Source: Escherichia coli
Lineage (GTDB): Bacteria > Pseudomonadota > Gammaproteobacteria > Enterobacterales > Enterobacteriaceae
NCBI RefSeq assembly: GCF_048403405.1
Contig: NZ_CP183129.1
Strand: one strand, 5' to 3'
DNA: 64,000 bases
Part shown: positions 42,399 through 45,869 of the stretch, in pieces
Numbering within the stretch: position 1 is the first letter of the stretch
Layout of the letters: each line of letters starts with the position of its first letter
Notes under the pieces: model-generated
What the model saw: only the letters and a program-made list of their open reading frames with translations
What the model was told of the DNA's origin: nothing
The model's database searches: none
Made by a program: the position numbers and the translations under genes

Positions 42399-43044
<646 letters not shown>

Positions 43045-43116
43045 TTATTCCCAAGAAATGATAGTGAGCGTAATATTCACGCGCTCAATTATCATAACTT
43101 ATTCCTGGGGAATGCT

Positions 43117-44157
43117 ATGACTGGTCAGTCTTCATCTCAGGCGGCAACGCCCATTCAGTGGTGGAAACCCGCGCTTTTCTTTCTCGTTGTCATTGCTGGT
43201 CTCTGGTATGTGAAATGGCAACCATACTACGGCAAAGCGTTTACTGCTGCCGAAACCCACAGTATCGGTAAATCTATCCTTGCGCAGGCGGATGCTAATC
43301 CGTGGCAGGCGGCGTTGGATTACGCGATGATCTATTTCCTCGCGGTATGGAAAGCGGCGGTGCTGGGGGTGATCCTCGGTTCGTTGATTCAGGTGCTGAT
43401 CCCGCGTGACTGGTTGCTGCGTACGCTTGGGCAATCGCGCTTTCGCGGCACGCTGCTGGGAACGCTGTTTTCGCTGCCGGGTATGATGTGTACCTGCTGT
43501 GCGGCTCCGGTCGCGGCGGGAATGCGTCGCCAACAGGTATCGATGGGCGGGGCGCTGGCATTCTGGATGGGGAATCCGTTGTTAAACCCGGCGACGCTGG
43601 TGTTTATGGGGTTTGTCCTCGGCTGGGGCTTTGCCGCGATTCGTCTGGTGGCGGGGCTGGTGATGGCGTTGCTGATTGCGACGCTGGTGCAAAAATGGGT
43701 ACGTGAAACACCGCTAACGCAGGCACCGGTCGAAATTGACATACCGGAAGCGCAGGGCGGATTTTTTAGCCGCTGGGGCAGGGCGCTATGGACGCTTTTC
43801 TGGAGTACGATCCCGGTTTACATCCTTGCAGTACTGGTGTTGGGTGCCGCTCGCGTGTGGTTATTCCCCCATGCTGATGGTGCTGTCGATAACAGCCTGA
43901 TGTGGGTGGTGGCGATGGCGGTGGCAGGATGCTTGTTTGTCATTCCCACGGCAGCAGAAATTCCGATTGTACAAACGATGATGCTGGCAGGCATGGGAAC
44001 CGCTCCGGCGCTGGCATTGTTGATGACGCTCCCGGCGGTGAGTTTACCGTCACTGATTATGCTGCGCAAAGCGTTCCCGGCGAAAGCCTTATGGCTGACA
44101 GGGGCGATGGTGGCAGTGTCTGGTGTGATTGTCGGCGGGTTGGCGCTGTTGGCCTAA
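43117..44157 (+). CDS. yraQ: Inner membrane permease YraQ (UPF0718 family)
   Basis: 346-aa polytopic hydrophobic ORF. Confidence 0.92.
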   Translation: MTGQSSSQAATPIQWWKPALFFLVVIAGLWYVKWQPYYGKAFTAAETHSIGKSILAQADANPWQAALDYAMIYFLAVWKAAVLGVILGSLIQVLIPRDWLLRTLGQSRFRGTLLGTLFSLPGMMCTCCAAPVAAGMRRQQVSMGGALAFWMGNPLLNPATLVFMGFVLGWGFAAIRLVAGLVMALLIATLVQKWVRETPLTQAPVEIDIPEAQGGFFSRWGRALWTLFWSTIPVYILAVLVLGAARVWLFPHADGAVDNSLMWVVAMAVAGCLFVIPTAAEIPIVQTMMLAGMGTAPALALLMTLPAVSLPSLIMLRKAFPAKALWLTGAMVAVSGVIVGGLALLA

Positions 44158-44191
44158 GATGTTGGATGCTCCTGAATACAGCACTGGACGG

Positions 44192-44230
44192 TCCCCTCTC
44201 CCCTTTGGGGAGAGGGTTAGGGTGAGGGGA
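44192..44230. repeat. GC-rich palindromic element between convergent yraQ and dolP
   Basis: CCCTCTCCCC-TTT-GGGGAGAGGG perfect 10-bp inverted repeat followed by TTAGGGTGAGGGG; no T-run, so not a canonical intrinsic terminator. Confidence 0.45.
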
Positions 44231-44278
44231 ACAGGTCGGCTAAGATGTGAATATTTACTTCAACGACCGATCAATGGC

Positions 44279-44854
44279 TTATTTAATAAACGTAAACGCC
44301 GTAGTTACCCGCTTCACGCCGCTCACCCGGCTGGCAATATCTGCCGCCGCTTTCGCTTCACGTTCAGTCACCAGCCCCATCAGGAACACTTCACCGTTTT
44401 CGGTGGTCACTTTCACGTTGGACGATTTCACCAGGTCGCTGGTTAAGAGCTGCGAACGTACTTTGGTGGTGATCCATGTATCGTTAGACGCTTCGCCCAG
44501 ACCAATCGGCTGGCCCTGACGAATCTCGTTATACACTTCGTTGGCACCGTCTACGCCCATAGCAATCTGTTTGGCGCGAGCCGAAAGTTCAGCGTTTGGT
44601 GACTGCCCAACCAGCAGCACTTTGCCCTGATACGCCGTGACATTAATACGGGTTTCTTTCTTAATCTGTTCGTCTTTCGACAATGCGCTGTTTACGCGCA
44701 CTTCCAGGGTACCATCGTCCACCTGGGTGCCGACACTGCGTGGGTCAGTTGCGGCTTTGGTACCTACAGCAGCGGTACCCACTACGGCAGCGGCAACACA
44801 ACCTTGCAACAGCAGCGCGGAAAGAAGGACTGCGATTGGCGATAATGCCTTCAT
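44279..44854 (-). CDS. dolP: BON-domain outer membrane lipoprotein DolP (YraP)
   Basis: 191-aa ORF with lipobox LLQGC and two BON domains. Confidence 0.94.
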   Translation of the reverse strand: MKALSPIAVLLSALLLQGCVAAAVVGTAAVGTKAATDPRSVGTQVDDGTLEVRVNSALSKDEQIKKETRINVTAYQGKVLLVGQSPNAELSARAKQIAMGVDGANEVYNEIRQGQPIGLGEASNDTWITTKVRSQLLTSDLVKSSNVKVTTENGEVFLMGLVTEREAKAAADIASRVSGVKRVTTAFTFIK

Positions 44855-44863
44855 GTATTCTCC

Positions 44864-45454
44864 TTAAACATCCTGGTGAGGGAAAAGCGTGTTATCGATC
44901 AGATCGCACAGGCAATTTACCGTCAGCATATGCATCTCCTGAATGCGAGCACTACGATGCGAAGGAATGCGGATCTCCACATCCTGTGGCCCTAACAAAC
45001 CTGCAAGTTCACCGCCGTCATAGCCGGTTAATGCCACAATGGTCATATCACGCGTAACGGCAGCTTCTACCGCTTTTACAATATCGCGGCTGTTGCCACG
45101 GGTGGAAATGGCTAACAATACATCTCCCGCATGACCCAGCGCCCGCACCTGTTTTGCATACACTTCATCATGTAAGCGATCGTTGGCAATCGCCGTTAAG
45201 ACAACATTATCAGTATTTAGTGCAATGGCAGGTAAGCTGGGCCGCTCCGTTTCGAAACGGTTGATCATGCTGGCAGCAAAATGCTGTGCATTGGCAGCGG
45301 AAGTTCCATTACCACAACAGAGGATTTTGTTGCCATTGAGCAGAGACTGAACCAGCGTCATGGCTGCACGGGAGATGGCATCCGGAAGCGCCTCTGCCGC
45401 CGCAATTTGAGTTTGAATGCTTTCAGTGAAGCAAGCTTTAATTCTTTCTTGCAC
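44864..45454 (-). CDS. diaA: DnaA initiator-associating protein DiaA (SIS domain)
   Basis: 196-aa [64 protein letters not shown]..., apparent GTG start. Confidence 0.94.
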
Positions 45455-45473
45455 GCTAATCCTTAAACCTTAA

Positions 45474-45869
45474 TTATGAGTGGTCATTAAAGGCATCCTT
45501 AATCCACTCAACCTCATTCCCGGTGAAGGCTACCACATCGAACCGGCAATCCACAGTATCAAAACTCCCATTATGACGCGCGAGCCACAAGCGGGCAGTC
45601 TGTAATAATTTGTGTTGTTTGCTGCGGGTCACACTGGCTGCCGCGCCGCCATAAAGCGCAGAGCGGCGGTAACGCACCTCGACAAAAACGGTGATCCGGC
45701 CTTCACGCATTATCAGATCGATCTCGCCGCCACGCTCGTTCACGTTAGCGGCGATAAACCGCAGTCCTTTGCCTTCCAGCCAGCGACGCGCTTGTGCTTC
45801 CCACGCATCGCCGGTCTGTTTGGTGGTTAACTGGCGGGGACTACCTGACCTTGTTGGTACTGTAGCCAT
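45474..45869 (-). CDS. yraN: UPF0102 protein YraN (endonuclease-like fold)
   Basis: 131-aa ORF; its 5' end overlaps the 3' end of lpoA. Confidence 0.92.

Follow-up and report, generated by a model that had tools for sequence, protein, structure and literature searches.

In the window, the 64,000-nucleotide stretch of Escherichia coli DNA analysed here, a short G+C-rich palindrome lies in the spacer between the convergent genes yraQ (permease) and dolP (yraP), as the initial annotation had stated. The element is entirely intergenic: yraQ stops at 44157 and dolP at 44279. The surrounding region (43000-45500), which covers yraR, yraQ, dolP, diaA and yraN, was 100% identical to the corresponding sequence of strains TUM14771, GN02461, 4621 and MS 69-1. 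The features of the locus are as follows.

43117-44157 (+): yraQ coding sequence; the last two codons and the stop (TAA) are allele-specific
44158-44278 (no strand): yraQ-dolP spacer, 121 bp, allele-specific, showing no similarity to the K-12 spacer, which carries a REP pair
44181-44193 (+): left flank conserved in type-A BoxC copies, GCACTGGACGGTC; consensus about gNGCACGGACGGTC
44194-44203 (+): block 1, pyrimidine arm CCCTCTCCCC, 5' half of the hairpin
44204-44206 (+): loop 1, TTT
44207-44216 (+): block 2, purine arm GGGGAGAGGG, 3' half of the hairpin and central strand of the potential triplex
44217-44219 (+): loop 2, TTA, which marks TMECO type A
44220-44229 (+): block 3, GGGTGAGGGG, potential Hoogsteen third strand, antiparallel to block 2
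44230-44258 (+): family-conserved internal spacer, AACAGGTCGGCTAAGATGTGAATATTTAC
44259-44278 (no strand): expected place of the inverted type-B arm; remnant not detected (shuffle p 0.27-0.94)
44279-44854 (-): dolP coding sequence; the stop is TAA here and TAG in K-12

The + strand at 44193-44229 reads C CCCTCTCCCC TTT GGGGAGAGGG TTA GGGTGAGGGG. Positions 44194-44203 paired with 44207-44216 around the loop at 44204-44206, so the perfect 10-bp stem and TTT loop described earlier were confirmed; the range originally given for them, 44192-44230, is this 37-mer plus flanking bases on either side (two 5' and one 3', as counted). Both the 23-mer palindrome and the 22-mer GGGAGAGGGTTAGGGTGAGGGG occurred once in the window and in 0 of 100 dinucleotide-preserving shuffles. 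As single-stranded DNA, the 37-mer folded into the hairpin at -11.4 kcal/mol (z = -2.65), and folding of the RNA of both strands gave the hairpin about -21 to -24 kcal/mol, the calculated range being -21.7 to -23.7. The RNA folds of the whole spacer were unexceptional (z = -1.3 and -2.0). In yraQ-sense RNA (44181-44240, +), block 1 could pair either with block 2 over the perfect 10 bp or with block 3 and part of block 2, and the minimum-energy fold of this 60-nt RNA (-23.7 kcal/mol) was the block 1:block 3 alternative, not the block 1:block 2 hairpin. Two competing hairpins are therefore available in yraQ-sense RNA and one in dolP-sense RNA. Placed antiparallel to block 2, block 3 gave 10 of 10 allowed triads in the purine motif (8 G·G:C, 1 T·A:T and 1 A·A:T), and the three blocks fit a class II purine-motif triplex (G·G:C, A·A:T, T·A:T). 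A 3-layer G-quadruplex, predicted at -12.6 kcal/mol for the G-rich part alone, was rejected as a fold of the element and was never the minimum-energy fold with block 1 present. On sequence grounds, the hairpin and the odd tail that had been noted behind it form one three-block unit, a potential triplex motif.

This unit matched the consensus of the TMECO triplex motif, CCCTCNCCC-N3-6-GGGNGAGGG-N3-GGGNGAGGG[GTC-] (Holder et al. 2015, PMC4666352), which those authors equated with the BoxC repeat of the 1990s and with the PIT element of Hoyne et al. 2000. A regular-expression search of the window with this consensus returned a single exact hit, at 44194-44228 (+), followed by G at 44229. The TTA second loop assigned the copy to type A. 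It stands one base apart from the commonest K-12 type-A copy (G to T at block 1 position 6), and its stem is perfect because T, not the commoner G, occupies this position. Table 1 of Holder et al. (2015) lists 23 copies in K-12; none of the 23 was identical to the window copy, and yraQ-dolP is not among the 23 sites. The supplements of the same paper hold 62 loci, given without gene names. No repeat feature was annotated in the K-12 RefSeq record at the 16 BoxC loci inspected.

Of 5426 complete E. coli genomes, 5425 contained matches to a 51-mer query around the element; the median was 18 matching places in a genome, and in total 93030 matches lay on chromosomes and 377 on plasmids. The initial annotation had proposed a copy count with the 39-mer in the same genome and had named a single copy with no transcript 3' ends nearby as refuting its reading; the element proved to be multi-copy, and the suggestion of "another small intergenic repeat family" was borne out by the exact consensus match together with the many genomic copies, the family being BoxC, also known as PIT and TMECO. 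A search of Rfam gave best hits of about 15 bits against gathering thresholds of 37-88, all of them generic GC hairpins; whalefall-1, mir-3059, Pab91 and other candidates, all sub-threshold at about 15 bits, were set aside. The palindrome is almost certainly a one-armed type-A copy of BoxC (PIT element, TMECO triplex motif). It is an already catalogued E. coli repeat and not a new regulatory element.

The extent of the element was determined by aligning the window with the trmJ-iscR, gcvP-ygfF and recA-recX copies and by comparison with a list of 25 E. coli copies and their flanks. Family homology spanned 44181-44258, comprising the left flank, the motif and the internal spacer, and was thus wider than the 39-mer originally reported. 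Flank and spacer homology was common to trmJ-iscR, gcvP-ygfF, recA-recX and 14 K-12 loci, and in the three-locus alignment nearly all columns were invariant for window positions 44187-44235. The type-A family flanks present in the window are GGACGGTC on the 5' side and GAACAGG...GAATATTTAC on the 3' side. Full-length E. coli copies begin with a left flank (about gNGCACGGACGGTC) that leads into the type-A motif. A conserved spacer (GAACAGGCCGGCACTGGCGCGAATATTTAC) follows, then a type-B motif in inverted orientation whose second loop is CCG, and a short right flank closes the unit; the arms stand 29 nt apart, and the whole is an imperfect palindrome about 125 bp long. By a position-by-position count, 22 of the 29 bases of the internal spacer at 44230-44258 were those of the segment that separates the arms in full-length copies. 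A consensus search of the window found no second motif, that is, no inverted type-B partner about 29 nt downstream. The stretch 44259-44278 was considered as a decayed right arm and rejected, its local alignment to three right arms being no better than that of shuffles (p = 0.27-0.94); the stretch compared, 44257-44278, contained no significant remnant. Unpaired motifs are common in K-12 (13 of 23). The window copy shares with the described family (Bachellier et al. 1990s; Hoyne et al. 2000; Hoyne & Maher 2002; Holder et al. 2015) the exact consensus, the type-A TTA loop, an intergenic and strain-variable position, a multi-copy nature and homology in flank and spacer, and it differs in having T instead of the commoner G in block 1 and in lacking the inverted type-B partner.

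The same spacer holds a REP pair without BoxC in K-12 MG1655. The window spacer shared no sequence with this REP pair, nor did it match the REP consensus palindrome (GCCGGATG...CATCCGGC type), and the earlier statement that the palindrome is not a REP was upheld. The BoxC allele, scored where at least 80% of a 181-bp query across the spacer matched, was counted in 428 of 5426 E. coli genomes (7.9%); the K-12-type REP allele was present in the same spacer in 4649 of 5426 (86%). The two alleles differ from the last two yraQ codons and stop (TAA vs TGA) through the dolP stop (TAA vs TAG), and the last YraQ residue differs between them. In strain WCHEC025943 a tandemly duplicated REP pair was observed, and the spacer thus exists in at least three E. 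coli forms: BoxC, REP pair and duplicated REP pair (compared: window 44151-44281; L001 3986-4098; L127 2531-2734). Holder et al. 2015 (PMC4666352) reported that TMECO loci vary and rearrange between strains far more than control spacers do, and the yraQ-dolP polymorphism fits this. Elsewhere in K-12, single BoxC copies directly adjoin REP in the convergent-gene spacers frlR-yhfS (L138 ~1380-1460) and fimH-gntP (L143 ~1370-1450), so that BoxC and REP accumulate at the same places. REP/BIME and BoxC are alike as short G+C-rich intergenic palindromes, often located after gene ends, and REP forms RNA hairpins that block 3' exonucleases, as BoxC may do too; a REP pair also fills the yraQ-dolP spacer itself in the 4649 genomes above. 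However, the sequence of REP is unrelated to that of BoxC and has no third block, and REP has a known transposase (RayT) and known binding proteins, whereas neither is known for BoxC.

Outside E. coli, the exact consensus was found at least 145 times in about 1 Mb sampled of Mitsuaria chitosanitabida, at least 13 times in a Methylomirabilota MAG, at least 3 times in Candidatus Contendobacter and at least 5 times in an unclassified MAG. The three 9-nt blocks of the E. coli motif were identical in these distant phyla, and the loops and flanks were genome-specific (L014-L120, L006-L013, L021-L023, L121-L125). Each of the Mitsuaria matches (at least 145) was followed by a conserved TCTTCGGGCT, and at least 27 stood in head-to-head pairs 30-272 nt apart. 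The tail-to-tail pairs of the Methylomirabilota MAG (L007 1551-1651, L012 1031-1130, L013 985-1086) had a spacing similar to that of an E. coli A/B pair (L003 1508-1606), 29-31 vs 29 nt, with unrelated spacers. Among the matches listed, block 1 position 6 was T or G, and its partner, block 2 position 4, was A in 173 of 174. Four lineages, namely E. coli, Mitsuaria, Contendobacter and the unclassified MAG, therefore have a frequent G.A mismatch at one and the same place in the stem. The mismatched G could wobble-pair with a T of block 3, yet at least 15 Mitsuaria copies have this G together with an A in block 3. In the copies listed, the three blocks are near-invariant from Enterobacteria to Burkholderiales and Methylomirabilota.

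RNA 3' ends near BoxC were assessed in K-12 Term-seq and bicyclomycin data (Adams et al. 2021, PMC7815308), which we checked at all 23 motif coordinates of Table 1 of Holder et al. The sequence column of the Adams table consists of 50 nt upstream, the 3' end nucleotide and 10 nt downstream, as verified against the coordinates. A Term-seq 3' end lay within 12 nt of the hairpin at 4 of 18 K-12 BoxC loci. The primary lldD end, 3781065(+), was located 4 nt past the TM#17 hairpin in a significant Rho region (Rho score 1.49), and its intrinsic-terminator score was 1.32, under the cut-off of 3.0. The end at 3959467(-) was located 4 nt past the block 1:block 2 stem of TM#20 (ppiC side), and that at 164636(+) 5 nt past the TM#2 hairpin (hrpB side). 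At the fepB-entC locus, 624567(-) lay 12 nt past TM#7 and 624680(-) lay 4 nt upstream of TM#8. The latter is a strong 3' end in the fepB leader (L134 ~2181; read counts 103563 and 243213), positioned before the type-B TM#8 and not downstream of its hairpin; it could reflect pausing or processing ahead of the structure. At some loci, including gcvP (gcvP-ygfF, L003 1440-1500) and ppiC, BoxC is found just downstream of a canonical intrinsic terminator, and at ppiC 3' ends occurred both at the intrinsic terminator (3959499) and 4 nt past the BoxC hairpin (3959467). By a rough estimate of chance, about 3000 uniformly distributed ends would place about 1 row near the motifs, and more if ends concentrate in spacers; 6 rows were seen. 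The enrichment of 3' ends at BoxC is weak by itself, and the argument rests mainly on the regularity of the +4/+5 positions.

The same data gave evidence on Rho. Rho regions beyond TM#5, TM#14 and TM#16 in K-12 were antisense to tauD, aaeR and zntA, and therefore transcription reads through those copies. At the K-12 dolP-yraQ locus, a strong Rho termination region at 3297309(+) was antisense to yraQ (score 8.5, p = 1.9e-17); it lies about 211 nt into antisense yraQ, and its window equivalent is about 43946 (-). A 3' end at 3298255(+) was antisense to yraR (window equivalent about 43000, -), and the window has the sequence surrounding this end at 42997-43041 (-), conserved but for a single mismatch. 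From the Rho region antisense to yraQ and the 3' end antisense to yraR it follows that dolP-operon transcription in K-12 passes through the spacer and is ended by Rho beyond it. Within the yraQ-dolP REP spacer of K-12 itself, the Adams et al. data list no curated 3' end. Dar & Sorek 2018 (PMC6061677) showed that Rho-dependent transcripts of E. coli have their steady-state 3' ends directly behind stable stem-loops that lack a U-tract and block the exonucleases PNPase and RNase II; REPs make up only 24% of those protective stem-loops.

Overall, the locus is probably best explained by a one-armed BoxC copy in the shared 3' region of yraQ and dolP whose RNA hairpin protects the ends of the messages. 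Transcription from either side would run through the BoxC element, and Rho would end it further on; the K-12 evidence for an end beyond the spacer concerns the dolP direction and the REP allele. The 10-bp G+C hairpin would form in the RNA of both strands and halt 3'->5' exonucleases, so that mature yraQ and dolP messages would end a few nt past the stem. The BoxC hairpin would thereby take the part that, in the 86% of E. coli genomes with REP here, probably falls to the REP pair. At the level of single-stranded DNA, block 3 would permit the intrastrand triplex seen in vitro, a structure that has been put forward as the basis of the high turnover at BoxC loci. The following 3' ends are predicted.

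44220-44221 (+): predicted steady-state 3' end of yraQ mRNA, 4-5 nt past the hairpin, by extrapolation from K-12 copies
44189-44190 (-): predicted steady-state 3' end of dolP-operon mRNA, 4-5 nt past the hairpin, by extrapolation from K-12 copies and the Rho data of the locus

The RNA 3'-end role of the hairpin at yraQ-dolP, considered as a separate claim, is an analogy with the K-12 copies to which we give tentative, rather less than even, credence. The initial annotation had suggested a Rho-dependent or structure-based 3'-end stabiliser, and for this the support is indirect, from the 3' ends 4-5 nt past the hairpin at three other copies and from Rho termination beyond the yraQ-dolP spacer in K-12. 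Like the protective 3' stem-loops of Rho-dependent transcripts, BoxC is a stable hairpin without a U-tract, three of its K-12 copies have 3' ends a few nt past the stem, and Rho termination occurs further downstream; unlike BoxC, those stem-loops are a functional class and not a sequence family, and membership of the yraQ-dolP copy in that class would be by inference. Against the role stand the low proportion of K-12 BoxC loci with a nearby Term-seq end (only 4 of 18), the pairing of block 1 with block 3 at similar energy in the yraQ sense, and the report that the motif is unrelated to gene orientation, with more copies upstream than downstream of ORFs (Holder et al., PMC4666352). The unexceptional RNA folds of the whole spacer and the absence of a curated 3' end from the K-12 REP spacer also count against it.

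A stable hairpin between convergent genes, in a spacer with no other terminator-like site, might also be read as an unconventional bidirectional intrinsic terminator for yraQ and dolP. The K-12 3' ends 4-5 nt past the hairpin would agree with this, and a G+C-rich hairpin after a stop codon is what BoxC has in common with Rho-independent terminators. Nevertheless, such a terminator is barely credible. The absence of a U-tract, pointed out in the initial annotation, was confirmed for both strands: there is no T-run, and the stem is followed by TTAGGG (+) and GACCGT (-). Terminator and promoter scans of 43900-44500 gave 0 sites, and PIT elements are cited as having neither promoter nor terminator activity in reporter assays (Hoyne & Maher 2002, as quoted under ref. 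41 in Holder et al., PMC4666352), a further difference from Rho-independent terminators as far as that quotation goes. In K-12, moreover, the lldD end lies in a Rho region and scores below the intrinsic-terminator cut-off (1.32 < 3.0), and there is Rho-dependent read-through past three other copies and past the yraQ-dolP spacer. The BoxC hairpin here is not a terminator. A neutral or selfish repeat, tolerated in a permissive spacer and doing nothing useful there, is a more serious alternative, in which the K-12 3' ends would be incidental by-products of any stable hairpin. It agrees with the lack of an assigned function after three dedicated studies, with the mixed settings of 16 K-12 loci (6 convergent, 8 co-directional and 2 divergent spacers), with a presence that varies between strains and reaches only 7.9% of genomes at yraQ-dolP, with the truncation of the window copy, whose right arm is absent, and with the piling up of BoxC and REP in spacers such as frlR-yhfS and fimH-gntP. 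This reading overlaps the protective-hairpin explanation, as an incidental hairpin would still shape the 3' end, and the near-invariance of the three blocks across copies and even phyla is hard to square with pure neutrality; we consider it unlikely, though it deserves weight.

An effect on DNA itself appears less likely still. Here the G-rich strand, when single-stranded during replication, transcription or repair, would fold into an intrastrand purine-motif triplex or a G-quadruplex, and the stalling of polymerases and destabilisation of the locus would be the biological effect. The triads are all of an allowed kind (10 of 10), the 3-layer G-quadruplex (-12.6 kcal/mol) is available to the isolated G-rich part, and CD and NMR of near-identical oligonucleotides showed a stable triplex of the isolated strand, with polymerase stops in vitro (Holder et al., PMC4666352); the rearrangement of TMECO loci relative to control spacers and the three or more forms of the yraQ-dolP spacer point in the same direction. 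However, DMS footprinting in vivo did not reveal a triplex, double-stranded DNA of the motif keeps its duplex form, and RNA does not adopt purine-motif triplexes (Holder et al., PMC4666352); an earlier study, as relayed in that paper, found no in vivo effect on replication. The hairpin also outcompetes the quadruplex when block 1 is present, and hypervariability may equally follow from repeat insertion and loss. The protective-hairpin, DNA-triplex/instability and tolerated-selfish-repeat readings are not mutually exclusive. A REPIN- or MITE-like mobile element would supply a different origin: the two-armed form would be mobile, moved by a REP-associated tyrosine transposase or another enzyme, and the window copy would be a decayed half. 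This would suit the palindromic full-length E. coli copies (about 125 bp, arms separated by 29 nt), the same tail-to-tail geometry in the Methylomirabilota MAG (29-31 nt apart) and the abundance of exact matches in Mitsuaria chitosanitabida, where about 1 Mb contained at least 145, at least 27 of them in inverted pairs; a full-length BoxC also resembles REPINs (inverted REP doublets) as an inverted doublet with a short spacer. We nonetheless judge it very improbable. tblastn with a single E. coli RayT query against about 1.1 Mb sampled from motif-bearing loci of four genomes found no relative around the motifs (best E = 3.4), and the E. coli RayT is tied to classical REP. No association of the motif with transposons, phages or plasmids was reported (Holder et al., PMC4666352), and a right-arm remnant was not found in the window copy. 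BoxC thus differs from REPINs in that a RAYT was not found by the motifs sampled and in that the window copy is a singlet.

A broader proposal, which we put forward as speculative and on balance improbable, has two parts. BoxC/TMECO may be a second genome-dispersed class of 3'-protective modules that serves Rho-terminated transcripts, does not depend on REP and can trade places with it in the same spacer. Separately, the near-invariant blocks, with their recurrent G.A mismatch variant and the arm spacing of 29-31 nt, may reflect a sequence-specific partner, either a protein or a mobilising enzyme, and not triplex physics alone. At the yraQ-dolP spacer, two hairpin repeats of unrelated sequence replace each other cleanly and naturally in the same 3' region, a modest addition to the catalogue. 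The Term-seq ends 4-5 nt past BoxC hairpins at three K-12 loci give a family that has long been without a function a testable role at the RNA level.
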